The notes under the pieces: generated by a model
Seen by the model: only the letters and a program-made list of their open reading frames with translations
The model's database searches: none
What the model was told of the DNA's origin: nothing
Shown: in pieces, positions 11,362 through 28,836 of the stretch
Layout: every line of letters starts with the position of its first letter
Numbering within the stretch: the stretch's first letter is position 1
From: Escherichia phage vB_EcoM-LTH02
Sequence record: PP430346
Reading direction: 5' to 3' (one strand)
DNA: 64,000 nucleotides
Translations under genes and position numbers: made by a program

Positions 11362-11383
11362 AAAAAAGGCTCCCGAAGGAGCC
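11362..11383 (-). terminator. intrinsic terminator downstream of the endolysin gene
   Basis: Hairpin GGCTCC-CGAA-GGAGCC followed on the minus strand by TTTTTT. Confidence 0.55.
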
Positions 11384-11393
11384 TATGAAGATA

Positions 11394-11858
11394 TTACTTT
11401 GGATATACACTGTCAAGATAAATGCCAGCTTCCATTCTACGTCTGTTTTTCAGGCCGTTTGAAGTGACCTTCTTACCTTTGACTGTGACCTTGTTCCACC
11501 ACTGCATAGCTTCTGCACAACCTACCTTGTTACCAGCATTGTGGCGCTTGATAAATGTAGAATCCTGCATAGCTGTGATACCGATGTTGTATGTTTCACT
11601 TACAAGTGCATCGAACTCGTTCTGAGAAGTTGGAACCTTGATAGCTTTATTCACTGCTGCAACGAACTTCTCAACATCTGCAAGAAGATACTGTTCAGCT
11701 TGTTCAGCAGTAATTTTCATACCCATCTTAACAGTTTTTCCGTCAATACGGATTGTACCATACCCGATTGTCGGGATTCCGGCAGAGTCTTCGTAAGCCT
11801 CTAACTTCAGACCTTCGAAGAACTTAATAGCTTCTAAACCTTTTCTTGAGAGTTGCAT
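11394..11858 (-). CDS. endolysin, T4-lysozyme-like muramidase (GH24)
   Basis: Catalytic-region signature EGLKLEAYEDSAGIPTIGYGT matches the Glu...Asp...TIGYG pattern of T4 e-type lysozymes; ATG overlaps stop of upstream gene (TAATG). Confidence 0.85.
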   Translation of the reverse strand: MQLSRKGLEAIKFFEGLKLEAYEDSAGIPTIGYGTIRIDGKTVKMGMKITAEQAEQYLLADVEKFVAAVNKAIKVPTSQNEFDALVSETYNIGITAMQDSTFIKRHNAGNKVGCAEAMQWWNKVTVKGKKVTSNGLKNRRRMEAGIYLDSVYPK

Positions 11859-12991
11859 TATGCCTCCCCTGCTGGGTTAACTGTAACTGTTGCCGCATTA
11901 GATGTTACAGAGCCACCTGCACCAGTAACTACACAGGTGTAGCTTCCTGCGTCAGCAGTGGTTGCACCTTCTTTGGTGTAAGTTGCAGCAGTTGCGTCTA
12001 GGATGTCTTCCTCACCCTTCTTCCACTGATAACCTGTCGCACCAGTAGCCACAACATTCAGCGTTAAGGTCTCACCTTCAGTGATTTCTTGATTGGTTGG
12101 CTGCTGAGTGATAACTGGCAAAGCATTTACCGTGATTGTTGCAGGGTTAGAAGTAACAGAACCTCCAGCACCAGTTACAACACAAGTATATGAGCCTGCA
12201 TCTGCTGGCAGTGCACCAGACTTGCTATAGGTAGCATTTGTAGCTGAAGGGATGTCAGAGCCATCTTTCTTCCACTGGTAACCTGTTGCACCTGTTGCAG
12301 TCACTGATAGACTGATGTTTCCACCTTCATTAATGGTCTGGCTAGAAGGTTGCTGTGTAATCACAGGCAGTGCGTTAACAGTAACCGTTGCTGCATCTGA
12401 GGTGACACTTGTTCCACCCTCTCCAGATACAACACAAGTGTATGAACCAGCATCAGAAGGTGCTACGGATTGTTTTGTGTAAGTTGCAGAAGTGGCACTG
12501 GGGATGTCCTCACCATCCTTCTTCCACTGATATCCAGTGGCGTTAGTTGCTAGAACACTTAAAGTAAGTGTGCCACCCTCATTGACTGTTTGGCCTGTTG
12601 GTTGCTGAGTAATTGCTGGTGGCTTAATAGCATCCTTCAGCTTAGCATTCAACATTGAGAACGGCTTAACTCTTGCCAACCATTCACAATACACTGTGTC
12701 AACGTCTTTACCATTGATGATTGCATACTGTAAATCCATGAAGAAATCAGCAGTCCTCATCTGTGCACCAACACTGTAAAGGAGTTCATCACTAAAAGGA
12801 ACTTTGTAGTCTGGTTTGTAGTCAAACTTCGCAACCTCTGCAATATCAGCTTCAGGCCAATATGAGCTATAGGTTAGCGGTAAAATAGCTTCTTGATATG
12901 TTCTAAAATCATATCTCTTACCAGCCTTTACATTTGCAACGAAACCTTTTACAAATTCTTTGAAGTCTGGGTAAGTCTTTGCTTTAATCAT
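11858..12991 (-). CDS. protein with N-terminal domain plus three tandem Ig-like (I-set-like) domains
   Basis: Three roughly 80-aa repeats each with P.ITQQP...EG..L.V.ATGATGYQWKK.G.DI..AT.ATY.K...DAGSYTCVV.G.GGSVTS..AT.TVN; matching roughly 255-bp DNA repeats at about 12010, 12266, 12518. Confidence 0.7.
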   Translation of the reverse strand: MIKAKTYPDFKEFVKGFVANVKAGKRYDFRTYQEAILPLTYSSYWPEADIAEVAKFDYKPDYKVPFSDELLYSVGAQMRTADFFMDLQYAIINGKDVDTVYCEWLARVKPFSMLNAKLKDAIKPPAITQQPTGQTVNEGGTLTLSVLATNATGYQWKKDGEDIPSATSATYTKQSVAPSDAGSYTCVVSGEGGTSVTSDAATVTVNALPVITQQPSSQTINEGGNISLSVTATGATGYQWKKDGSDIPSATNATYSKSGALPADAGSYTCVVTGAGGSVTSNPATITVNALPVITQQPTNQEITEGETLTLNVVATGATGYQWKKGEEDILDATAATYTKEGATTADAGSYTCVVTGAGGSVTSNAATVTVNPAGEA

Positions 12992-13359
12992 TTCTTTTTA
13001 GCCTCTAAACGTGCGTTTAATCTAAAATAGCCTTTATGTTGTGGAGACACATCACTAACAACAATGCCTTCAACTTTATAACCCTTACCAATTACATACT
13101 GGATATCCATAAGAAACGTACCAAGCCCAACAATGTGGAACATTGGGTATAGCAACTTATCTGAATCTGGGAGTTTAATTTCTGGGTTATAGGTGGGTTG
13201 TTCGGCGGTTGGTGTAATATCCTCTTCAGGCCATTTACTCATTCTCCATGTTAAAGGTGATGCAATAACATCGTTAAGATTGTATCTTTCACCATTCTCC
13301 ACGGAGTGGATATAGGATTGTAGGAAGCAATAAAAGTCTTTTGCACTCTTAGCCTTCAT
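12988..13359 (-). CDS. paralog of the N-terminal domain of the Ig-like protein
   Basis: Shared motifs AK..DF..F......V..G.RY, WPE.DI, SD.LLY, F.MD.QY.I, LNA.L with the first about 130 aa of 11858..12991. Confidence 0.55.
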   Translation of the reverse strand: MKAKSAKDFYCFLQSYIHSVENGERYNLNDVIASPLTWRMSKWPEEDITPTAEQPTYNPEIKLPDSDKLLYPMFHIVGLGTFLMDIQYVIGKGYKVEGIVVSDVSPQHKGYFRLNARLEAKKK

Positions 13360-13406
13360 TAAATATCCTTATAAACAGATAAAGGGGCATCAGCCCCTGT
13401 TTATAC

Positions 13407-13997
13407 TTAAGCTTTGGTCTTAAGTAGGTTCTTAAGTTTTTTGAGATTCATGCTCTCGTCAAACTTAAAACCAAATCCATTGACATAATCAATGAACTCG
13501 GATTTCTTACTAAGTGATAGTGCGTAACTCATATCAAAGTTATTACTTGTTTCTGCGTCTGGACTAGAGTTCACATCAAATGAAATTTCTGTAGGCTCTT
13601 GCTTGCTACTTCTCATATTATCAATCAATAGACAGGTGTAGTTCGCTGGATAGAAGTTAACACTCCCATCAACATACCCATACTTATTATTGTGAATAAG
13701 GCTGGAAAATACCTTAAGAAATGTTTCTGAGTCGTGGCATACAAGTTTGAATTGACTGCATTCCCCAAGAGCCACTAAAGAGTAAGGGCTTTCACTATCA
13801 ATGTCATAGTTTGGATTTGATGTTGTAACCGTCACACGCATCAAGTTATTAGCGATAGTCTTCTGCTTGAAAGAATTTGGGACATAGTGAAGACCTCTAT
13901 CACACTGATTAACTAACTCTTTCAATAGGTCATTTGCATATGGTGAATTAATTGATACAGAGCCATCACTATTATAATTAAAACTTACTGTTAACAT
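13407..13997 (-). CDS. hypothetical protein (196 aa)
   Basis: ORF track; ATG start. Confidence 0.5.
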   Translation of the reverse strand: MLTVSFNYNSDGSVSINSPYANDLLKELVNQCDRGLHYVPNSFKQKTIANNLMRVTVTTSNPNYDIDSESPYSLVALGECSQFKLVCHDSETFLKVFSSLIHNNKYGYVDGSVNFYPANYTCLLIDNMRSSKQEPTEISFDVNSSPDAETSNNFDMSYALSLSKKSEFIDYVNGFGFKFDESMNLKKLKNLLKTKA

Positions 13998-14616: not shown

Positions 14617-14988
14617 ATGAAAAACAGAACAAACAAAGGCCAGTTTAAAAAAGGCCAGTCTGGAAACCCATCTGGAAGACCAAAAGGCTCTCGTAACAAA
14701 AGCTCACTCGTAAAAGCTCAACTGACCATTGATAATTCTGCTGAGTTCGCTGCAAAGCTGTTTGAGGCGATTGTTACAAGGGACGCGGCTAAGCTTGCAG
14801 AGTTCGGGTTAAACACAGATGACGTAACCATCAAGAGTATGATTGAGGTCGGTAAAACTATCTTTACTCACTCAGCAGGTGAGATGAAAGCACTTGCAGC
14901 AGACACTAAGAAGGCTCCTGATAATGGTGGTCAACAACAGACAGATAACAAACCAACGTTCTCTGCTGTAGCGACTCTCAAAAAATAA
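14617..14988 (+). CDS. hypothetical protein with N-terminal basic motif GQSGNPSGRPKGSRNK
   Basis: ORF track; SD AAGAGG 8 nt upstream of ATG. Confidence 0.55.
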   Translation: MKNRTNKGQFKKGQSGNPSGRPKGSRNKSSLVKAQLTIDNSAEFAAKLFEAIVTRDAAKLAEFGLNTDDVTIKSMIEVGKTIFTHSAGEMKALAADTKKAPDNGGQQQTDNKPTFSAVATLKK

Positions 14989-15069: not shown

Positions 15070-16485
15070 ATGAGCGAGTTATTTAAACATGCGCACCTTC
15101 ATGCAGGTCGAACTGAAAATGGTGCTGTAAACCATACTTCATCAATGTCTGCTCTGGTAGACTTCTACAAAGCCGCTGGCTCAAGCCGTAGTAATGTAGA
15201 AATCTTACCAGACCTGTTCTACAAAGCTTTGCGTGAGGATGTTGATGTTGCAGTTCGTATTTTACTGCATATGCGAGATGTACGAGAAGGTATGGGTGAG
15301 CGTAAAGCTTTCCGAACTGTTTTACTTCAAGCGATTGAAGATAAGTTTTTAGAGCCTACACAGGTTCTTCGCATTATGGATAAGATTGTAGAACTTGGTC
15401 GTTTTGATGACTTCAAAATCTTCATAGGTACTCGTTTTGAGACAGATGCCTTCAAACATTTAGAAGCAGCATTACTAGACCCTGCAACAGCAGGTTTAGC
15501 AGCTAAGTGGTTACCACGAGTAAAACCACGCCACAAACAGTTTGTAAAACGTTTCTGTAAGTTTGCAAACTTAAGCGAGAAAGAGTACCGCACACTGTTA
15601 TCTGCACTGTCTGATACGGTTGAGCAAAAAATCTCTGCTAATGAGTTTGGTAAGATTGACTACAGCAAGATTCCTTCACTCGCTGCTGCACGTTACCAAA
15701 AGCTCTTTAACCGTAAAGATGGGGAACGTTACAAAGCTTATATCGAGTCACTCTCAAAAGGTGAGGCTAAGATTAACGCTGGTGCTGTTTACCCATACGA
15801 TGTGATTAAATCTATTAAGTATGGTAATGCAGATGTTGCTAATGAGCAGTGGAAAGCACTTCCAAACTGGATGGCAGAAGGTGAAAACATCTTGTGTATG
15901 ACTGATGTTTCAAGCTCAATGTCTTGGGTGAATCTTGGCTCAATTACTGCCCTTGATATTGGTGTATCACTTGCCTTATATGTAGCAGAACGCAATACAG
16001 GTTGCTTTAAAGATGAGTTAATGGTCTATTCAACAAACCCTCATTTCATTGAACTGAGTGGTGATTTACGAAACCGTCATCGTCAGGTAATGCGTCATGT
16101 TGAATATGGTTCAACTAACTTACAAGCAGCTTTTGACCGTATTCTTGAGATAGGTAAGAGAAACAACTTGACTCAGAAAGATATGCCAAGTAAGCTTATC
16201 ATCTTCTCCGATATGGAGTTCAATCAGGTTGATGGAGCTAACGGTCGTACAAACTTTGAAGCAATTCAGAGTAAGTACAAAAAAGCTGGATATGAGATGC
16301 CACAACTAGTATTCTGGTACTTAGCAAACCGTAATGGTACTTGCGAAGTGTCTGTTAAGGATAATGGTGTAGCAATGGTATCAGGGTTCTCTCCAGCCAC
16401 TTTAAAAGCTCTGCTTGGTGGTGAGAAGTTTGACCCAATCAGCGTAATGCTCAAAGCAGTAATGATTGACCGTTACATCTGGTAA
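15070..16485 (+). CDS. vWA-domain protein with MIDAS motif, possibly Ro60/TROVE-like
   Basis: 471 aa; MIDAS D-x-S-x-S in ILCMTDVSSSMS followed by a vWA-like C-terminal region; N-terminal helical region with TENGAV...SALVDFY; gene lies immediately upstream of the tRNA array. The vWA call is from sequence; the Ro60/TROVE assignment is from my memory of the family and its position, not a search. Confidence 0.55.
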   Translation: MSELFKHAHLHAGRTENGAVNHTSSMSALVDFYKAAGSSRSNVEILPDLFYKALREDVDVAVRILLHMRDVREGMGERKAFRTVLLQAIEDKFLEPTQVLRIMDKIVELGRFDDFKIFIGTRFETDAFKHLEAALLDPATAGLAAKWLPRVKPRHKQFVKRFCKFANLSEKEYRTLLSALSDTVEQKISANEFGKIDYSKIPSLAAARYQKLFNRKDGERYKAYIESLSKGEAKINAGAVYPYDVIKSIKYGNADVANEQWKALPNWMAEGENILCMTDVSSSMSWVNLGSITALDIGVSLALYVAERNTGCFKDELMVYSTNPHFIELSGDLRNRHRQVMRHVEYGSTNLQAAFDRILEIGKRNNLTQKDMPSKLIIFSDMEFNQVDGANGRTNFEAIQSKYKKAGYEMPQLVFWYLANRNGTCEVSVKDNGVAMVSGFSPATLKALLGGEKFDPISVMLKAVMIDRYIW

Positions 16486-16650: not shown

Positions 16651-16727
16651 CTCTGTTTAGCTCAGCTTGGTAGAGCGTTCCGTTTGGGGCGGTAAGGCCG
16701 GAGGTTCAAGTCCTCCAACAGAGACCA
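16651..16727 (+). tRNA. tRNA-Pro (anticodon TGG)
   Basis: Cloverleaf by eye: acceptor CTCTGTT/AACAGAG, D GCTC..GAGC, anticodon loop TTTGGGG, T-arm GGAGG-TTCAAGT-CCTCC, CCA encoded. Confidence 0.75.
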
Positions 16728-16734
16728 AATTAAT

Positions 16735-16812
16735 GTTCCAGTAGACAAAATGGTAAAGTCACCACTCTTTCAAAGTGGATATTTGAGGGTTCAAATCCCT
16801 TCTGGAACGCCA
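16735..16812 (+). tRNA. tRNA-Glu (anticodon TTC)
   Basis: Acceptor GTTCCAG/CTGGAAC, anticodon stem CCACT/AGTGG with loop CTTTCAA, T-loop TTCAAAT, CCA encoded. Confidence 0.75.
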
Positions 16813-16819
16813 GTTTTGA

Positions 16820-16892
16820 CAGAAGACCAATTGCAGCAAACTTAATCTTATTCATCTGACACGAAATCGGACAAAGAAGAGATTTGGTCTGG
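16820..16892 (+). ncRNA. structured element of the AGACC/GGTCT stem family (a)
   Basis: 5' CAGAAGACCAA-TTGCAGCAA ... TTGGTCTGG 3'; terminal 7-bp stem AGACCAA/TTGGTCT; lies between tRNA-Glu and tRNA-Met. Confidence 0.45.
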
Positions 16893-16903
16893 TCATTAAG
16901 AAT

Positions 16904-16980
16904 TGCGGGTATAGAGAAAGGGCGTCTCACATGTCTCATTAGCATGGTATCGGCAGGTTCGACTCCTGCACCCGCCTCCA
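16904..16980 (+). tRNA. tRNA-Met-like (anticodon CAT), irregular
   Basis: Anticodon stem CATGT/GCATG with loop CTCATTA, D-stem GAGA/TCTC, T-arm GCAGG-TTCGACT-CCTGC, 3' ACCCGCC-T-CCA; the acceptor pairs only with a T1/C72 mismatch or an extra nucleotide before the D-stem. Confidence 0.5.
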
Positions 16981-16986
16981 ATTTTG

Positions 16987-17046
16987 CAGAAGACCGTATT
17001 CAGCAACAAACTACTTTTTGCGGATAAAAGAAAAAACACGGTCTGG
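16987..17046 (+). ncRNA. structured element of the AGACC/GGTCT stem family (b)
   Basis: CAGAAGACCG-TATTCAGCAA ... CGGTCTGG; stem uses CG where elements a and c use CAA/TTG (compensatory change). Confidence 0.45.
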
Positions 17047-17057
17047 CAATGTATTAA

Positions 17058-17134
17058 GGTTAGGAAGCACATAAGGTATGTGCGGTCGCCTGTTAAGCGA
17101 ATGGCACAGGGTTCGAATCCCTGACTAACCGCCA
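17058..17134 (+). tRNA. tRNA-Asn (anticodon GTT)
   Basis: Acceptor GGTTAGG/ACTAACC, D GCAC..GTGC, loop CTGTTAA, T-arm CAGGG-TTCGAAT-CCCTG, G-CCA. Confidence 0.75.
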
Positions 17135-17143
17135 AATTTAAAT

Positions 17144-17231
17144 GTGTCGTTATCCCGTAGATGGTAGCGGTGGGGACTGTAAATCCCTTGTCATTGAGAC
17201 TCGGTAGGTTCGACTCCTACACGGCACACCA
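17144..17231 (+). tRNA. tRNA-Tyr (anticodon GTA), class II
   Basis: Acceptor GTGTCGT/ACGGCAC, loop CTGTAAA, long variable arm, T-arm GTAGG-TTCGACT-CCTAC, A-CCA. Confidence 0.7.
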
Positions 17232-17237
17232 AATAAA

Positions 17238-17315
17238 GGTTATGTAGTTTAATCTGGTTAAAATACTCCCCTGTCACGGGAGATGATGAGGGTTCAAATC
17301 CCTTCGTAACCGCCA
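17238..17315 (+). tRNA. tRNA-Asp (anticodon GTC)
   Basis: Acceptor GGTTATG/CGTAACC, anticodon stem CTCCC/GGGAG with loop CTGTCAC, T-loop TTCAAAT, G-CCA. Confidence 0.75.
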
Positions 17316-17402
17316 AATTATAATAAGTATTTCAAGATGATGTTTTGAGAGGGCTATTTAGCCCCTCCCTTAAAGAGTTCTTACGAGTATTCTTTAAAGG
17401 AG

Positions 17403-17479
17403 CAGAAGACCAAATTCAGCAAGTACGTATGATATTTTCAAGCCAATTTAATTTTGAAAAAATTTAAAACTTGGTCTGG
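17403..17479 (+). ncRNA. structured element of the AGACC/GGTCT stem family (c)
   Basis: CAGAAGACCAA-ATTCAGCAAG ... TTGGTCTGG; internal hairpin TTTTCAA...TTGAAAA. Confidence 0.45.
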
Positions 17480-17492
17480 CTCAACAAATTTA

Positions 17493-17624
17493 CAGAAGAC
17501 CGTTTACAGCAAAACTTAAACAATCTATTTCTCCGGTAAAGAAAAGGCGAAGGTTCGATTCCTTCACTCGGCAGATGTCGAGTTGGTGTAATGGTAGCAC
17601 TTAAGATGATAAACAACGGTCTGG
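17493..17624 (+). ncRNA. YrlA-like (Y-RNA-like) candidate: terminal stem plus circularly permuted tRNA-like module
   Basis: Terminal stem AGAAGACCGTT (17495-17504) / AACGGTCT (17615-17622); inside, in this order: hairpin TTTCT-CCGGTAA-AGAAA (17528-17544), canonical T-arm GAAGG-TTCGATT-CCTTC (17549-17565), closed acceptor-like stem ACTCGGC-AGAT-GTCGAGT (17566-17583), D-arm GTGT-AATGGTA-GCAC (17586-17600). Confidence 0.55.
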
Positions 17625-17631
17625 TAATTAT

Positions 17632-17763
17632 CTTTGTAGATAAGTTATTAAGCTTACCTGTGAGTATGCGACCACAAAGGGTGAAAGGGTAAATTCTAGA
17701 TTTAAACCCAACAAGGCACATCGCTACAGACCTTAAGCAAGTCTGGGTAGCTTATCTACAAAG
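17632..17763 (+). ncRNA. structured region closed by a 13-bp long-range inverted repeat
   Basis: CTTTGTAGATAAG (17632-17644) pairs with CTTATCTACAAAG (17751-17763); encloses hairpin CAGACC-TTAAGCAA-GTCTGG (17726-17745). Confidence 0.4.
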
Positions 17764-17773
17764 ATAATTTAAT

Positions 17774-17849
17774 GGAAGTGTAGCAGAATGGTGATGCGGC
17801 AGACTTTTAATCTGACAGGCGATGGGTTCGAATCCCTCCACTTCTACCA
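17774..17849 (+). tRNA. tRNA-Lys (anticodon TTT)
   Basis: Acceptor GGAAGTG/CACTTCT, loop CTTTTAA, T-loop TTCGAAT, A-CCA; T-stem weak (3 bp). Confidence 0.65.
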
Positions 17850-17853
17850 ATAT

Positions 17854-17930
17854 GGTTCAGTCGCAGATAAGGTAATGCAAGGGTCTCATAAACCCTATGA
17901 ATGTGGGTTCGATTCCCATCTGAACCTCCA
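17854..17930 (+). tRNA. tRNA-Met or Ile2 (anticodon CAT)
   Basis: Acceptor GGTTCAG/CTGAACC, anticodon stem AGGGT/ACCCT with loop CTCATAA, T-arm GTGGG-TTCGATT-CCCAT, T-CCA. Confidence 0.75.
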
Positions 17931-17931
17931 A

Positions 17932-18007
17932 GCTGGTATAGTTAAGAAGGTTATAACACTCCCCTGATAAGGGAACATCGGTGGTTCGATTCCACCTACC
18001 AGTACCA
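17932..18007 (+). tRNA. tRNA-Ile (anticodon GAT)
   Basis: Acceptor GCTGGTA/TACCAGT, D GTTA..TAAC, loop CTGATAA, T-arm GGTGG-TTCGATT-CCACC, A-CCA. Confidence 0.75.
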
Positions 18008-18022
18008 ATTTCAATAAAGTTG

Positions 18023-18051
18023 TTGACATTGAGATGTGACCACTTTATAGT
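18023..18051 (+). promoter_or_regulatory. internal promoter in the tRNA region (TTGACA-17-TATAGT)
   Basis: TTGACA 18023-18028, 17-nt spacer, TATAGT 18046-18051; about 200 nt non-tRNA leader follows before tRNA-Arg. Confidence 0.6.
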
Positions 18052-18254
18052 AACCTTAGTTTTCGTTGCGTAGCGTCTATTTTGCAAATTTAAAATAAAT
18101 GCAAACGACAATGTTTTTCTGGCAGTAGCTTGATAGGCTAAACACCAGTGAGGTCTTCCAATCCCTCATCAAAGAATTTGGCGTACTCGCCCACGGTATG
18201 ATTAATAAGGTGGGCATCTTTAAGGGCTTTCTAAGAGAGTCTTTAAAGATTAAT

Positions 18255-18331
18255 GCACCCTTAGTTCAATTGGATAGAGCAACGGTCTTCTAAATCGTTA
18301 GTTACAGGTTCGAATCCTGTAGGGTGTGCCA
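18255..18331 (+). tRNA. tRNA-Arg (anticodon TCT)
   Basis: Acceptor GCACCCT/AGGGTGT, D GTTC..GAGC, loop CTTCTAA, T-arm ACAGG-TTCGAAT-CCTGT, G-CCA. Confidence 0.75.
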
Positions 18332-18473
18332 AATAGTTAGCAGATTGCTTAGACGACCTTATCGGGTCTCCGTGTAAGGAGGTGGTCTGTATCTCATGTT
18401 TTCCAGAACATGTAAATAATCTGAGAAGGGGCTTTACAGTGTTGCGAAAATACGGTAAGCTTCGAATTATAGT

Positions 18474-18556
18474 GTGGGACGATGTTAAGACTCTAAGGCA
18501 TGAGCAACGGCCTCCAAAACCGTTTCAAAGGGGTTCAACTCCTCCGTCCCATGCCA
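18474..18556 (+). tRNA. tRNA-like, possibly Trp (anticodon CCA), irregular
   Basis: Acceptor GTGGGAC/GTCCCAT, T-arm AGGGG-TTCAACT-CCTCC, G-CCA; anticodon arm ACGGC-CTCCAAA-ACCGT; 9 nt instead of 2 between acceptor and D-stem, total 83 nt. Confidence 0.4.
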
Positions 18557-18569
18557 AAGTCTTATTAGG

Positions 18570-18659
18570 GGTAGGTAGCGGCTAATGGTAGCCAAACTGT
18601 CTTGAAAACAGTTGCCACTGTAGAGATACGGTGAGGGTTCGACTCCTTTACTTACCGCC
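18570..18659 (+). tRNA. tRNA-Ser (anticodon TGA), class II
   Basis: Acceptor GGTAGGT/ACTTACC, anticodon stem ACTGT/ACAGT with loop CTTGAAA, long variable arm, T-arm GAGGG-TTCGACT-CCTTT; 3' end reads G-CC-T, so CCA is not fully encoded. Confidence 0.7.
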
Positions 18660-18814
18660 TAATAAGATTTAAAGCCAAGCTTCATTCGGATGTTGCTTTG
18701 GTATCCCTCGTGTATTGTCGTACACGCACAGTAAAGCACCTAGTAGGTGTCACGGAGAAGAGATAATATCAAGCTCTCCAAAGGTTCTAGTCACCGGATT
18801 AAACAAGACTATGC

Positions 18815-18836
18815 AAAGACCAAATTAGGTCTTTTT
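18815..18836 (+). terminator. terminator-like hairpin using the AGACC/GGTCT stem
   Basis: AAAGACC-AAATTA-GGTCTTT followed by TT. Confidence 0.4.
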
Positions 18837-18915
18837 AGAGGGCTTCTAAGGTTATTACAGCTTGTTGTGGAACCTTGTTGCTTAGGTTCTTAGAAGTTCT
18901 CTAAAAAGATTTAAT

Positions 18916-18992
18916 GCACCTATAGCCCAATTGGTAGAGGCAGCAGACTTAGAATCTGCTCAGTGTGAGTTCGAATCTCTCTAGGTGTACCA
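18916..18992 (+). tRNA. tRNA with anticodon TAG (Leu by anticodon; short variable arm)
   Basis: Acceptor GCACCTA/TAGGTGT, anticodon stem GCAGA/TCTGC with loop CTTAGAA, T-loop TTCGAAT, A-CCA; 77 nt. Confidence 0.65.
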
Positions 18993-18999
18993 AATTAAT

Positions 19000-19075
19000 G
19001 CAGGTGTAGCAAAATGGTTATGCGGCTGACTCTTAATCAGTAAGACGATGGGTTCAATTCCCTCCACCTGTACCA
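19000..19075 (+). tRNA. tRNA-Lys (anticodon CTT)
   Basis: Acceptor GCAGGTG/CACCTGT, loop CTCTTAA, T-loop TTCAATT, A-CCA; paralog of tRNA-Lys(TTT). Confidence 0.65.
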
Positions 19076-19081
19076 AACATT

Positions 19082-19157
19082 GGGGATGTAGTTTACATGG
19101 TTAAAACATAAGTTTTGCAAACTTAAGTACAGGGTTCAATTCCCTGCTTCTCCACCA
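19082..19157 (+). tRNA. tRNA-Ala (anticodon TGC)
   Basis: D GTTT..AAAC, anticodon stem TAAGT/ACTTA with loop TTTGCAA, T-arm CAGGG-TTCAATT-CCCTG, 3' CTTCTCC-A-CCA. Confidence 0.7.
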
Positions 19158-19163
19158 ATTAGT

Positions 19164-19238
19164 GCATCCATAGTTTAAACGGGAAAATTACAGTCTTCCA
19201 AACTGAGGTTGAGGGTTCGATTCCCTCTGGATGCTCCA
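19164..19238 (+). tRNA. tRNA-Gly (anticodon TCC)
   Basis: Acceptor GCATCCA/TGGATGC, loop CTTCCAA, T-arm GAGGG-TTCGATT-CCCTC, T-CCA. Confidence 0.75.
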
Positions 19239-19244
19239 AACAAT

Positions 19245-19321
19245 GCTGCTTTCGTATAATTGGCTATTACACATCCCTTGTAAGGATGGAAATGCAGGTT
19301 CGAGTCCTGTGAGCAGCACCA
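19245..19321 (+). tRNA. tRNA-Thr (anticodon TGT)
   Basis: Acceptor GCTGCTT/GAGCAGC, anticodon stem CATCC/GGATG with loop CTTGTAA, T-loop TTCGAGT, A-CCA. Confidence 0.75.
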
Positions 19322-19325
19322 ATTC

Positions 19326-19411
19326 AGAGGTCAAGTGAAAGACCGCTGGTGTCAACTGAAGACCGTAACAAATTCCACGGAGTTGAGTTAGCGGCACAAC
19401 TTCAGACCTCT
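19326..19411 (+). ncRNA. multi-stem structured element between tRNA-Thr and the next tRNA
   Basis: Nested stems AGAGGTC (19326-19332) / GACCTCT (19405-19411); CCGCT (19343-19347) / AGCGG (19390-19394); TCAACT (19352-19357) / AGTTGA (19381-19386); apical loop carries GAAGACCGTAACAAATTCC, related to the 5' arms of elements a-d. Confidence 0.45.
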
Positions 19412-19416
19412 TCCAT

Positions 19417-19491
19417 ACTCGCTTAGTTTATATGGTAAAACACCACCCTTACAAGATGAAGAAAAAGGTTCAAGTCCTTTAGTGAGTACCA
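19417..19491 (+). tRNA. tRNA-like, anticodon probably TAC (Val); weak anticodon stem
   Basis: Acceptor ACTCGCT/AGTGAGT, D GTTT..AAAC, T-arm AAAGG-TTCAAGT-CCTTT, A-CCA; anticodon region CCACC-CTTACAA-GATGA forms only 3 of 5 pairs. Confidence 0.45.
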
Positions 19492-19492
19492 T

Positions 19493-19570
19493 GTTCCAGT
19501 ATCCCAATTGGCAGAGGATGCAAGCTCAAACCTTGTACTAGTGACGGTTCGAATCCGTCTTGGAACACCA
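19493..19570 (+). tRNA. tRNA with anticodon CAA (Leu by anticodon; short variable arm)
   Basis: Acceptor GTTCCAG/TTGGAAC, anticodon stem GCAAG/CTTGT with loop CTCAAAC, T-arm GACGG-TTCGAAT-CCGTC, A-CCA. Confidence 0.65.
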
Positions 19571-19575
19571 ATTTT

Positions 19576-19651
19576 GCAGGATTAGTTCAAATGGATAGAG
19601 CAACAGTCTACGAAGCTGTTAATAGGGGTTCGAATCCCTTATCCTGCGCCA
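19576..19651 (+). tRNA. tRNA-Arg (anticodon ACG)
   Basis: Acceptor GCAGGAT/ATCCTGC, D GTTC..GAGC, loop CTACGAA, T-loop TTCGAAT, G-CCA. Confidence 0.75.
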
Positions 19652-19670
19652 ATTTAAAGAGGCTATTTAG

Positions 19671-20228
19671 ATGAGATATTTGAAGTATGCTTCATGGATT
19701 TTCTTAGCTTTGTTAGAGCCATTTGCAGCAATCTTAGCAGTTATCTTAGCACCTTTCGTAGTTCCATTTTACAGTGAGAAGAAAGGACACTTACCTTTCG
19801 GATTTAGATGGATGGAAACTTACGACAACCCGATTGATGGTGATGAAGGTCACGTCAAACGATGGGCTAAGATTAGAAAGATTGGTAAGCTTGGTATCTA
19901 TATGCAGAGAGTCGGTTGGCTCTGGAGAAACAAAGCTTATAACTTCTCTTATCATGTGTTAGGAAGAGATGTGAAAGATGTTACTAAGTGGAAAGGTAAT
20001 ATTAATGTAAGTTCTAACCCTGAAGATAATCAGACAGGTTATCTCCTAATGTGGAACAGTAATGCTTGGGGATTATTCGCTTTTATCCCATCAATTAAAG
20101 TCTTTGGTAAACAATTCTACTGGAGAATTTATGTTGGATGGAAACTTAAAAGTGTTGTCCCAAAAGAAAGAGCATTCTCAAGGGAAAGAGTTATGTTGGC
20201 ATTCTTTATTCATCCACTAAGAAAGTAA
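19671..20228 (+). CDS. hypothetical Trp-rich membrane-anchored protein embedded in the tRNA array (185 aa)
   Basis: ATG at 19671 with SD in AAGAGGCTATTTAG; N-terminal hydrophobic helix WIFLALLEPFAAILAVILAPFVV. Confidence 0.55.
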   Translation: MRYLKYASWIFLALLEPFAAILAVILAPFVVPFYSEKKGHLPFGFRWMETYDNPIDGDEGHVKRWAKIRKIGKLGIYMQRVGWLWRNKAYNFSYHVLGRDVKDVTKWKGNINVSSNPEDNQTGYLLMWNSNAWGLFAFIPSIKVFGKQFYWRIYVGWKLKSVVPKERAFSRERVMLAFFIHPLRK

Positions 20229-20236
20229 AGATTTAA

Positions 20237-20312
20237 AGGGGATTAGTTTACAAGGTTAAAACCTCGGTCTTTGAAATCGAAGAAGTTGGTTCAATTCCAA
20301 CATCCCCCGCCA
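20237..20312 (+). tRNA. tRNA-Gln (anticodon TTG)
   Basis: Acceptor AGGGGAT/ATCCCCC (A1/C72 mismatch), D GTTT..AAAC, anticodon stem TCGGT/ATCGA with loop CTTTGAA, T-arm GTTGG-TTCAATT-CCAAC, G-CCA. Confidence 0.7.
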
Positions 20313-20314
20313 AT

Positions 20315-20393
20315 GCTCCATTACTCCAATTGGCAGAGAGGCCAGACTTAAAATCTGTGTTATGTATCGGTTCGAATCCGATATGGAGTACCA
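20315..20393 (+). tRNA. tRNA with anticodon TAA (Leu by anticodon; short variable arm)
   Basis: Acceptor GCTCCAT/ATGGAGT, loop CTTAAAA, T-arm ATCGG-TTCGAAT-CCGAT, A-CCA. Confidence 0.6.
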
Positions 20394-20398
20394 AATTT

Positions 20399-20474
20399 AG
20401 CGGTATAGCATAACTGGCAATGCAGCAGTCTCTGAAGCTGTCTTATTAAGGTTCAAATCCTTATGCCGCTGCCA
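20399..20474 (+). tRNA. tRNA-Gln (anticodon CTG)
   Basis: Acceptor AGCGGTA/TGCCGCT, D GCAT..ATGC, loop CTCTGAA, T-arm TAAGG-TTCAAAT-CCTTA, G-CCA. Confidence 0.7.
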
Positions 20475-20505
20475 CTTCTAAGGGTTCTTACGAGAGTCCT
20501 TAAAT

Positions 20506-20581
20506 GTGGCCTTATCATAAAAGGTAATGACCCATGCTGTGAACATGGTCTATACGGGTTCAAATCCCGTAGGTCACCCCA
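20506..20581 (+). tRNA. tRNA-His (anticodon GTG)
   Basis: Acceptor GTGGCCT/AGGTCAC, D TCAT..ATGA, anticodon stem CCATG/CATGG with loop CTGTGAA, T-arm ACGGG-TTCAAAT-CCCGT, discriminator C then CCA. Confidence 0.75.
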
Positions 20582-20586
20582 ATTTA

Positions 20587-20663
20587 TAGTCCAAGTAGCT
20601 TATATGGTTAAAGCGCGTGTCTGAAAAACATGAGAAGAGGGTTCAAATCCCACTGGACTACCA
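20587..20663 (+). tRNA. tRNA-Phe-like (anticodon GAA), irregular acceptor/D junction
   Basis: D GCTT..AAGC, anticodon stem CGTGT/ACATG with loop CTGAAAA, T-loop TTCAAAT; acceptor TAGTCCA/TGGACTA pairs perfectly but leaves a nonstandard junction and 3' end. Confidence 0.55.
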
Positions 20664-20679
20664 ATTTCAAAGGTGCTTA

Positions 20680-21414
20680 ATGAAAGAGATGACAGAACAA
20701 GGTAAGGAGATTTTTAATCTCTTAAAAACCGGTAGAGGGTTTTCTAATCCCCTTATTACTGGTGCAGCAGTTCTCGGTGGAACCGTAGCTGCCTCTACAT
20801 CACTTGTAAGCTCTATTAGCTCTGTAACAGACCCTACAATAAAAGATAAGCTTATTGCTGCTGGACTTACAACAGTTCTGCTTAATAGCTTTACAACGAG
20901 TCTGACAAGCACTACATCAACCACTAAGACATTGACAGATTACGGTCAAAAATCAATTGATGAGTTTTCATCACGTATGCAGGTAGCAAAAGGATATTCC
21001 AATGTTATGGGTGCAGCAGGAGAGCAAGTTGGTTGTACACCATTTAGTGGTATTATGGGTGTTGCTACAGAGTATGGTCAAAAAGCTATTGACACAATTA
21101 ACAGCACACTAGACAGTGTTAACGGTGTGTTAAGTGACTTACAGGATGCTATTGATGAAGGTCTTGATACCATTTCTGATTTAGCTAACCAAGCTGTTAG
21201 CAAGATTAATGAAGGTATCTCAAAGATTACAGCTTATGCAGATGAAGTTGTGCAGATGATTGAAGAAGAAGCTGCCCTTATTGCAGAGTACCTTAAAACG
21301 AATATCAATGGGTTCTTAGCAGGTATCTTACCAGACTGGTTTGATGATGCTTGTAAAACTGGTGTAATTGATACTATTGCAACACCAGAAATGAAGAACG
21401 CATTACAGAAATAA
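20680..21414 (+). CDS. hypothetical Ser/Thr-rich protein (244 aa)
   Basis: ORF track 20617..21414 starts at GTG inside tRNA-Phe; moved to ATG at 20680; stop lies 1 nt before tRNA-Ser(GCT). Confidence 0.55.
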   Translation: MKEMTEQGKEIFNLLKTGRGFSNPLITGAAVLGGTVAASTSLVSSISSVTDPTIKDKLIAAGLTTVLLNSFTTSLTSTTSTTKTLTDYGQKSIDEFSSRMQVAKGYSNVMGAAGEQVGCTPFSGIMGVATEYGQKAIDTINSTLDSVNGVLSDLQDAIDEGLDTISDLANQAVSKINEGISKITAYADEVVQMIEEEAALIAEYLKTNINGFLAGILPDWFDDACKTGVIDTIATPEMKNALQK

Positions 21415-21415
21415 T

Positions 21416-21508
21416 GGAAGATTAACCCTAAAAGGTAAGGGAGCAGTTTGCTAAACTGCCAGTAGCTGAGAAATCGGTGTACCAGTTCAAGTCTGGTATC
21501 TTCCTCCA
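21416..21508 (+). tRNA. tRNA-Ser (anticodon GCT), class II
   Basis: Acceptor GGAAGAT/ATCTTCC, anticodon stem GCAGT/ACTGC with loop TTGCTAA, long variable arm, T-arm ACCAG-TTCAAGT-CTGGT, T-CCA. Confidence 0.7.
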
Positions 21509-21512
21509 ATTT

Positions 21513-21588
21513 GAATCCGTGACAGAAATGGCTATGTGCCTGTCTGCAAAACAGGTTTATAAGGGTTCGAGTCCCTTCGGATTCTCCA
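21513..21588 (+). tRNA. tRNA-Cys (anticodon GCA)
   Basis: Acceptor GAATCCG/CGGATTC, anticodon stem CCTGT/ACAGG with loop CTGCAAA, T-arm AAGGG-TTCGAGT-CCCTT, T-CCA. Confidence 0.75.
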
Positions 21589-27729: not shown

Positions 27730-28836
27730 ATGTTGACTAATTCTGAAAAAAGCAGATTTTTCCTTGCTGACCTGACTGGTGAAGTCCAGTCTATCCCAAA
27801 TACTTATGGGTATATTTCCAACTTAGGTCTGTTCCGTTCAGCACCAATCACCCAAACTACTTTCCTTATGGACTTGACTGATTGGGATGTTAGCTTGCTT
27901 GATGCGGTAGACCGTGATAGCCGTAAAGCAGAGACTAGCGCACCTGAGCGTGTTCGTCAAATCAGCTTCCCAATGATGTACTTCAAAGAAGTTGAAAGCA
28001 TCACTCCTGATGAAATTCAGGGTGTACGTCAGCCAGGCACTGCAAACGAGCTTACTACTGAAGCTGTAGTACGTGCTAAGAAGCTGATGAAGATTCGTAC
28101 CAAGTTCGATATTACTCGTGAGTTCCTGTTTATGCAAGCTCTGAAGGGTAAAGTTGTCGATGCTCGTGGTACTCTGTACGCTGACCTGTACAAGCAGTTC
28201 GATGTTGAGAAGAAGACTGTTTACTTCGACCTTGACAACCCTAATGCGGATATCGACGCTTCTATTGAAGAACTGCGTATGCACATGGAAGATGAAGCTA
28301 AGACTGGCACTGTAATCAACGGTGAAGAAATTCACGTAGTTGTTGACCGTGTGTTCTTCAGCAAGCTGACTAAACATCCTAAGATTCGTGATGCTTATCT
28401 TGCACAGCAGACTCCGCTGGCTTGGCAACAGATTACTGGTTCTCTGAGAACTGGTGGTACTGACGGCGTTCAGGCTCATATGAACACCTTCTACTACGGT
28501 GGTGTTAAGTTTGTCCAGTACAACGGTAAGTTCAAGGACAAGCGTGGTAAGGTTCACACTCTGGTGAGCATTGATAGCGTAGCAGATACTGTTGGTGTTG
28601 GTCATGCTTTCCCTAACGTTTCTATGCTGGGTGAAGCAAACAACATCTTCGAAGTGGCATATGGTCCATGTCCTAAGATGGGTTATGCAAATACACTTGG
28701 TCAGGAACTGTACGTATTCGAATACGAAAAAGACCGTGACGAAGGTATTGACTTTGAAGCTCACTCTTACATGCTGCCATACTGTACTCGTCCTCAGTTG
28801 CTGGTAGATGTTCGCGCTGACGCCAAAGGTGGCTGA
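27730..28836 (+). CDS. major capsid protein (lambda gpE-like)
   Basis: 368 aa, size and position typical; gene order protease-decoration-capsid matches lambda-type head modules. Confidence 0.75.
   Translation: MLTNSEKSRFFLADLTGEVQSIPNTYGYISNLGLFRSAPITQTTFLMDLTDWDVSLLDAVDRDSRKAETSAPERVRQISFPMMYFKEVESITPDEIQGVRQPGTANELTTEAVVRAKKLMKIRTKFDITREFLFMQALKGKVVDARGTLYADLYKQFDVEKKTVYFDLDNPNADIDASIEELRMHMEDEAKTGTVINGEEIHVVVDRVFFSKLTKHPKIRDAYLAQQTPLAWQQITGSLRTGGTDGVQAHMNTFYYGGVKFVQYNGKFKDKRGKVHTLVSIDSVADTVGVGHAFPNVSMLGEANNIFEVAYGPCPKMGYANTLGQELYVFEYEKDRDEGIDFEAHSYMLPYCTRPQLLVDVRADAKGG

Follow-up and report, generated by a model that had tools for sequence, protein, structure and literature searches.

A Hex-Dec capsid decoration orthologue and a free-standing paralog of its capsid-binding domain beside the endolysin gene of Escherichia phage vB_EcoM-LTH02

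We analyzed positions 11,394 to 13,359 of a 64,000-nucleotide stretch, hereafter the window, of Escherichia phage vB_EcoM-LTH02 (sequence record PP430346), where a gene for a protein with 3 immunoglobulin-like (Ig-like) domains lies between an endolysin gene and a small gene related to its own N-terminal domain. The nucleotide identity of the locus region was 97.4% to Salmonella phage SUT_S720 and 97.1% to UAB_Phi87, and the region matched 240 phage records, essentially all Felix O1-like; the source phage is a Felixounavirus, that is, a Felix O1-like myophage. Three overlapping genes were identified on the minus strand, encoding proteins of 123 amino acids (aa; 12988..13359), 377 aa (11858..12991), and 154 aa (11394..11858), the last being a glycoside hydrolase family 24 (GH24) endolysin (PF00959, E = 6.8e-41; phrog_7). 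The first 2 open reading frames had been located correctly, with no strand given, in an earlier description made from the letters of the window (the sequence-only reading). That reading had also proposed that both are translationally coupled to the endolysin gene, and the gene junctions bear this out: the stop codon of the small gene overlaps the start codon of the 377-aa gene as ATGA, the stop codon of the latter overlaps the lysozyme start as TAATG, and the Shine-Dalgarno-like motifs GAGG and GGGGAGG precede the 2 internal starts of the cassette.

Terminator-like hairpins, identified by a consensus scan and from the sequence, flank the cassette on both sides. The hairpin at the 5' edge (13383..13398, minus strand) reads AGGGGCTGATGCCCCT followed by a T-rich tail and closes an upstream 196-aa gene; the AYO145A and Mordin annotations list its counterpart as a terminator, and it is kept in mio and Tf, which lack the small gene. 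The cassette ends at its 3' side in an intrinsic-terminator-like hairpin (11367..11384, minus strand) made of AGGCTCCTTCGGGAGCCT and then TTTTTTATTTT, also a terminator in the AYO145A and Mordin annotation.

The 377-aa protein comprises an N-terminal domain of approximately 123 aa and 3 tandem Ig-like repeats with I-set-like character, as the sequence-only reading had described it. The Pfam families Ig_3 (E = 6.4e-33), Ig_2 (E = 1e-27), and I-set (E = 7e-25) each matched 3 stretches of the protein. The repeats were 70–72% identical to one another in protein sequence and only 64–69% in nucleotide sequence, and because of this low nucleotide identity Tandem Repeats Finder identified no DNA-level array across the Ig region. 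On the minus strand, the N-terminal domain (aa 1–123), corresponding to the capsid-binding domain (CapBD) of the orthologues described below, occupies 12623..12991 and contains Arg79 and Arg107. It is followed by Ig-like domain 1 (aa 124–207; 12371..12622), assigned by Ig_3 and I-set matches and by comparison of the repeats, domain 2 (aa 208–290; 12122..12370; best Ig_2 stretch 209–288), and domain 3 (aa 291–373; 11873..12121; best I-set stretch 292–366), after which the last 4 codons and the stop codon reach position 11858.

A phmmer search of the 377-aa protein against the PDB identified chain S of 9NCF ("Immunoglobulin-like domain protein"; E = 2.3e-281, alignment from residue 1) and chain S of 9C2D and 9C3A ("tail protein"; E = 5.5e-172). 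These are the hexamer decoration Hex-Dec of Bas63 (Escherichia phage JohannRWettstein) and gp20 of Shigella phage Sf14. In both phages the protein is monomeric and uses its first ~120 residues to plug the centers of those hexamers of the T=9 capsid that adjoin a pentamer, with 1 copy per asymmetric unit and 60 of the 80 hexamers filled, and its Ig domains are flexible and were not resolved by cryo-electron microscopy (cryo-EM) (PMC12609058, PMC11821841). In Sf14, Arg79 and Arg107 form salt bridges to Asp221 of 3 capsid subunits, the geometry of Asp221 differs in the three-fold hexamers, and gp20 was found in virions by mass spectrometry (MS) (PMC11821841). Felix O1 gp36 was likewise identified in virions by MS, with 44% coverage (PMC3185647).

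Counted from the alignments, 118 of the 123 CapBD residues in the window protein are identical to Bas63 Hex-Dec and 108 to Sf14 gp20. Arg79 and Arg107 were invariant in 14 Hex-Dec sequences, the window protein included. The gene for the binding partner, the major capsid protein (MCP; 27730..28836, plus strand), was identified by a 100% match to the N-terminal peptide of the Felix O1 MCP, and its translation carries Asp at residue 221, as does Sf14 gp34. In pairwise comparisons, the ratio of nonsynonymous to synonymous substitution rates (dN/dS) was 0.036 for the Hex-Dec CapBD and 0.089 for the lysozyme. With high confidence, sequence comparison identifies the 377-aa gene as the orthologue of Hex-Dec, the published Hoc-like decoration of the Ounavirinae, in its normal genomic place. 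Its virion location is transferred from cryo-EM and MS on the orthologues by the 88–96% identity of the CapBD. On the T=9 capsid, one CapBD monomer would fill the center of every pentamer-adjacent hexamer, 60 in all, anchored through Arg79 and Arg107 to a ring of MCP Asp221 residues, and the 3 flexible I-set Ig domains would project outward as a fiber. Hex-Dec itself is thus already known and ordinary.

Most GenBank records, UniRef, and PHROG describe this protein as belonging to the tail ("tail protein," "HK97 major tail subunit," phrog_3995 "tail"), and major tail proteins (phrog_158 and phrog_853) can likewise carry Ig domains of this kind. However, the similarity behind these names is limited to the Ig repeats, the orthologue sits on the capsid in 2 cryo-EM structures (PDB 9NCF and 9C2D), and the Bas63 authors explicitly call the tail annotation wrong (PMC12609058). 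A tail protein is almost certainly not what this gene encodes.

Comparison with characterized decorations places the window protein closest to Bas63, where the orthologue has the same I-set repeats and the genes follow the same order, from bas63_0125 (the paralog) through bas63_0124 (Hex-Dec) to bas63_0123 (the endolysin), although Bas63 Hex-Dec has 4 Ig domains (460 aa) against 3 (377 aa) in the window. Sf14 gp20 shares the number of 3 Ig domains and both conserved arginines with the window protein, whereas Sf14 belongs to another genus (Mooglevirus) and its Ig repeats are approximately 70% identical to those of the window. The number of Ig domains in Hex-Dec orthologues ranged from 1 to 4, with lengths of 210 aa in EcSzw_1, 294 aa in Felix O1, 377 aa in the window, and 460 aa in Bas63, a variation that has been described before. 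One further protein (P0053, 209 aa) looks like a frameshifted Hex-Dec copy truncated inside the first Ig domain.

The comparison with T4 Hoc made in the sequence-only reading was apt, since the orthologues Bas63 Hex-Dec and Sf14 gp20 are capsid decorations at hexamer centers; the Ig fold is supported, the orthologues are present in virions, and the orthologous N-terminal domain binds the capsid. Like Hex-Dec, Hoc is a monomer at the hexamer center with a string of Ig-like domains extending off the head, and it is dispensable and has been implicated in adherence and aggregation (PMC12609058, PMC11821841). The analogy with T4 Hoc suggests that the probable role of the Hex-Dec fiber is in adherence or aggregation and not in strengthening the capsid. 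The 2 proteins differ in that the capsid-binding domain is C-terminal in Hoc and N-terminal in Hex-Dec, and these domains are topologically distinct, with no detectable homology. Neither a PDB sequence search with the N-terminal domain nor a Foldseek search with a CapBD model returned Hoc, and the "Hoc-like" PHROG matches cover the Ig region only (residues 120–298). Hex-Dec works like Hoc and is not a member of the Hoc family. To our knowledge, no stand-alone copy of the Hoc binding domain exists. The T5 decoration pb10 (PDB 5LXK and 8ZVI) contains an Ig domain homologous to that of Hex-Dec (E = 2.5e-12, query residues 132–206), but only a single one; its chains (5LXK_A and 8ZVI_a) were absent from the CapBD matches in both the sequence search and Foldseek, and Hex-Dec fell outside the pb10 family.

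The small gene upstream of Hex-Dec corresponds to Felix O1 gene 37 by position, to Sf14 FDI99_gp021, to bas63_0125, and to phrog_4463. Its paralogy to the N-terminal domain, proposed in the sequence-only reading, was supported by BLASTP, in which the 123-aa protein aligned end to end with residues 2–119 of Hex-Dec (64 bits, E = 1e-17, 35% identity over 121 aa). In a phmmer search against the PDB, the paralog matched 9NCF_S and 9C2D_S (E values of 1.6e-13 and 1.5e-11) and nothing else at E <= 1, and it matched phrog_3995 at E = 2.5e-16. No Pfam match, signal peptide, or transmembrane segment was identified in it.

We predicted the structure of the paralog with AlphaFold2 (AF2). An alignment of 16 sequences, mostly more than 75% identical, was too shallow and gave a model with a predicted local distance difference test (pLDDT) score of 59.7, a best Foldseek E of 0.41, and no match to 9NCF or 9C2D; this model was discarded. 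After distant homologues from an exhaustive hidden Markov model (HMM) search were added to the alignment, the final model had a pLDDT of 78.5 and a predicted template modeling score (pTM) of 0.78. Foldseek against the PDB aligned this model with 9C2D_S (TM-scores 0.79/0.81) and 9NCF_S (0.78/0.79), the only matches at E <= 0.001, the next having E = 0.34. Against predicted viral structures, Foldseek with the CapBD-fold model returned Ounavirinae proteins only, including the BIG2-domain protein of Erwinia phage phiEa104. The prediction indicates that the paralog is a complete stand-alone CapBD, a two-lobed domain of helix plus sheet. Fusion of the paralog with Hex-Dec through programmed frameshifting was also considered and discarded, since the 2 products are full-length paralogs of the same domain, and their junction is an ordinary ATGA overlap with its own Shine-Dalgarno sequence.

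In databases the paralog is listed as hypothetical or, by transfer, as "tail protein," and phrog_4463 is of "unknown function." The words paralog, duplication, and gp21 are absent from both cryo-EM papers (PMC12609058, PMC11821841), and a search for later Hex-Dec literature found nothing on the small gene. The free-standing paralog is the only part of this locus that is undiscussed in the searchable literature.

The trio of genes is widely conserved. An intact paralog was identified by tblastn in 232 of 252 related phage genomes of Felixounavirus, Suspvirus, and Mooglevirus, always at the same position, and a divergent 87-kb metagenomic phage keeps the trio with a paralog approximately 46% identical. 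The C-terminal half of the paralog is nearly invariant across the 3 genera. A Felix O1-type paralog and Hex-Dec were also found, at 86% identity, in GU169904.1 (Staphylococcus phage SA1), a record that probably reflects a mixed or contaminated assembly and not a host jump. A word-indexed protein search reached only relatives of at least 65% identity and missed Hex-Dec itself. The exhaustive HMM search, run over 1.84 billion representative proteins, identified only 12 relatives.

Across 50 informative pairs, with dS around 1, the median dN/dS of the paralog was 0.135 (range 0.04–0.23). These substitution patterns indicate a working gene under purifying selection that is less constrained than its neighbors. 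That the gene might be a functionless, slowly decaying duplicate is suggested by this weaker constraint and by its lack in about 20 of the 252 genomes; however, dN/dS stayed within 0.04–0.23 in all 50 pairs, the frame is intact across 4 lineages, one of them the ~46% identical paralog, and the near-invariance of the C-terminal half extends over 3 genera, so that decay is a highly improbable explanation.

More distant CapBD proteins were identified in Ounavirinae-like phages, namely phiEa104 (E5AFW9) and metagenomic contigs (proteins P0057–P0061; loci L017–L024), in which the CapBD is also N-terminal (HMM E = 2e-8 to 3e-4); E5AFW9, the BIG2-domain protein, was matched by fold only, with a Foldseek probability of 1.00 to the CapBD. 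Where flanks were readable (P0060 and P0061), the gene occupies the same syntenic slot after a gene of ~185 aa, and in P0060 it lies directly before the lysozyme gene. The C-terminal modules of these relatives differ, comprising Big_2 domains (P0057, P0058, P0061, and phiEa104), a single I-set domain (P0059), or a Lys-rich low-complexity tail without Ig domains (P0060). Judged from these sequences, the CapBD appears to be used as a modular capsid anchor across distant homologues. No free-standing paralog was found beside the distant CapBD genes with readable flanks.

In a neighbor-joining tree, paralogs and Hex-Dec proteins formed separate monophyletic clades, and the divergent lineage branched at the base of both. 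The single-copy distant relatives, together with this tree, mark the duplication as old and restrict it to the enterobacterial branch. The paralog is the faster-evolving copy, with 44% identity to the L015 lineage against 58% for the Hex-Dec CapBD. The 123-aa gene is an ancient tandem duplicate that is predicted to keep the whole CapBD fold and carries no Ig domains.

The cassette lies approximately 14.7 kb from the MCP gene, on the opposite strand and beyond an array of 26 tRNA genes. The sequence-only reading had called this location, outside the structural module and coupled to the endolysin, unusual. As a new finding this does not stand: the position of Felix O1 gene 36 outside the structural module was remarked in 2010 (PMC3185647), Bas63 Hex-Dec was described in 2025 as lying "more than 10 kb outside of the structural module" (PMC12609058), and the synteny is conserved. 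The gene order paralog, Hex-Dec, lysozyme is kept in Felixounavirus, Suspvirus, Mooglevirus, and the divergent metagenomic phage, and the lysozyme linkage is a conserved backbone synteny that reaches very distant relatives, a shared late cassette that implies no lysis function. Because this linkage is older than the duplication and is also seen with CapBD genes present in single copy, it is uninformative about a role in lysis and was set aside as evidence for one; it implies no functional coupling beyond late expression in common.

About the function of the paralog, the genomes of mio and Tf are informative. Both carry a pseudogene scar in its place (L003:2306-2497 in mio and L004:2305-2497 in Tf), in which the ATG is lost, frameshifts and an internal deletion of ~235 nucleotides are present, and 5' and 3' paralog remnants remain recognizable. 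The 2 phages share this one scar though their flanking genes are 0.17–0.28 apart in dS, and both encode an intact Hex-Dec whose CapBD is still strongly constrained (dN 0.010, dS 0.275). The paralog is therefore dispensable, having been deleted in a viable lineage, and a lineage that lacks it with Hex-Dec still under constraint shows that Hex-Dec is independent of it. This bears directly on the idea of an obligate chaperone or loading factor, a CapBD mimic that would keep Hex-Dec soluble or deliver it to expanded capsids. The gene is placed immediately upstream with an ATGA overlap favoring near-equimolar synthesis, it falls in the same late expression class as Hex-Dec, and it is missing from published virion lists. 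Against this, the natural knock-outs mio and Tf have kept Hex-Dec intact, with its CapBD constrained across species-like divergence, and the more distant relatives with readable flanks encode just one CapBD protein, with no helper gene beside it. We regard an obligate chaperone as very unlikely.

Evidence on expression and virion content comes from relatives. By reverse transcription PCR (RT-PCR) in Felix O1, open reading frames 36 and 37 share the latest class (60 min), to which the portal, sheath, and fiber genes also belong, and the paralog would accordingly be made late, from the overlapping cassette that it shares with Hex-Dec and the endolysin. The paralog was not among the Felix O1 virion proteins, a list limited to the top 17 proteins at coverage of at least 25%, though proteins of 9.7–13.7 kDa were detected (PMC3185647), nor was it among the VpaE1 virion proteins as summarized in the text of that paper. 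The wV8 proteome paper identified the tail fiber as its only protein, and STGO-35-1 is not a Felixounavirus. An intact paralog gene is present in Bas63 as well as in Sf14, and no density was seen on other hexamers in either cryo-EM study, including a 4.5 Å asymmetric map of Sf14 (PMC12609058, PMC11821841).

We compared residues across 14 Hex-Dec and 12 paralog sequences and identified 22 invariant positions shared by the 2 families, mostly core-like residues and prolines. A further 11 positions were fixed differently between the families, among them Arg79, replaced by an invariant Gly78 in the paralog, and Pro110-Phe111, replaced by Gly-Tyr (KPF to KGY). Position 107 of the paralog is Gln, His, or Arg, so that Arg107 is not conserved. 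Invariant Lys or Arg residues numbered 11 in the Hex-Dec CapBD against 2 in the paralog family, and the net charge of the paralog varied among orthologues from -4.3 to +3.8.

These observations bear on the possibility that the paralog is a stable Ig-less plug on the 20 three-fold hexamers, with 2 paralogous plugs partitioning the T=9 lattice. The predicted complete CapBD fold, the late co-expression and translational coupling with Hex-Dec, and the filling of only 60 of the 80 hexamers by Hex-Dec, with a different Asp221 geometry in the three-fold hexamers, are all in keeping with such a plug; the changed anchor residues could be an adaptation to a different site, and the mio and Tf deletion agrees with the dispensability typical of decoration proteins. 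The three-fold hexamers nevertheless lack density in both cryo-EM studies despite the intact gene, the protein is missing from the Felix O1 and VpaE1 virion lists although proteins of 9.7–13.7 kDa were detected, and only 2 invariant basic residues would face an Asp-lined pore. A stable plug therefore seems quite unlikely.

Alternatively, the paralog may have been neofunctionalized away from capsids, as a modulator of lysis or of the endolysin, or as a decoy for a host defense that senses the CapBD. Its faster, asymmetric evolution (44% vs 58% identity to L015; dN/dS of 0.135 vs 0.036), the 11 differently fixed sites including the capsid anchor Arg79, its lack from observed virions, and the unconserved net charge would fit such a change. 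No positive evidence points to another partner, however, given the lack of a Pfam match, signal peptide, or transmembrane segment, and the lysozyme linkage predates the duplication and says nothing about lysis. We consider this reading unlikely, though not remote.

The evidence favors instead a late accessory protein in which the fold has been kept and the capsid-contact chemistry changed, and which is not a stable virion component. We tentatively propose, as a possibility held with less than even confidence, that the paralog would be non-structural or a loosely, transiently bound accessory, with capsids or the loading of Hex-Dec as its target inside infected cells; its sites could be procapsid hexamers or the 20 three-fold hexamers unoccupied by Hex-Dec. 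The more specific idea of a second hexamer ligand, transient or at low occupancy on three-fold or procapsid hexamers, such that the pair of paralogs sets where and when Ig fibers mount on the T=9 head, is rather unlikely. Several points weigh against a late accessory of this kind. A 14-kDa paralog at 20 or fewer copies could escape thresholded virion MS lists, and imposing icosahedral symmetry smears out any monomer located on a three-fold axis. The RT-PCR classes of Felix O1 are crude, with the co-transcribed lysin gene 35 placed in the 25-min class, and a sigma-70 promoter scan returned 5 sites against 8.9 expected by chance, with no promoter assignable to the cassette. The loss of conserved basic residues argues against the paralog binding the acidic hexamer pore at all, which weakens the capsid-directed part of our proposal. 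Taken as a whole, the locus is very probably best explained by a known decoration in Hex-Dec, a late, Ig-less duplicate in the paralog, and a backbone synteny in the adjacency to the lysozyme.

Several features of the surrounding sequence were also recorded. The 196-aa protein directly upstream of the cassette (13407-13997, minus strand; phrog_4034) is conserved in all relatives, and one of its distant homologues has a faint Pfam Phage_Inh_N match. The 26-tRNA array (16651-21588, plus strand) separates the leftward cassette from the structural module and includes 2 tRNA-Met, 2 Lys, 3 Leu, 2 Arg, 2 Ser, and 2 Gln genes. It is directly preceded by a DUF5681 protein (14617-14988, plus strand) and a 471-aa vWA/DUF2828/DUF7788 protein (15070-16485, plus strand), the latter named "RNA-binding protein" in RefSeq records; synteny of this pair extends to the contigs with the most distant CapBD genes (L017 and L023). 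In the divergent Ounavirinae-like metagenomic phage, a Gad1 gene (PF25705, anti-Gabija) was identified approximately 4 kb downstream of the lysozyme (L015:11510-12369 and L016:8967-9826), and a search for a homologue in the equivalent stretch of the window found no comparable long open reading frame.

For the Ig protein the analysis adds nothing new: the phage carries the published Hex-Dec decoration, and the "tail protein" annotations of Hex-Dec orthologues are wrong. For the small gene, the capsid-binding module of a Hoc-like protein underwent an old duplication and has persisted as an Ig-less protein of its own, expressed late; we found no discussion of such a case in the searchable literature. 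Either outcome for the paralog would be of specialist rather than general relevance. If the paralog does not bind hexamers, it would be an example of a structural domain that took on a non-structural role. If it does, its binding could partly account for the filling of only 60 of the 80 hexamers by Hex-Dec, and the paralog would be a competitor for sites, relevant to phage-display and vaccine designs anchored via the CapBD.

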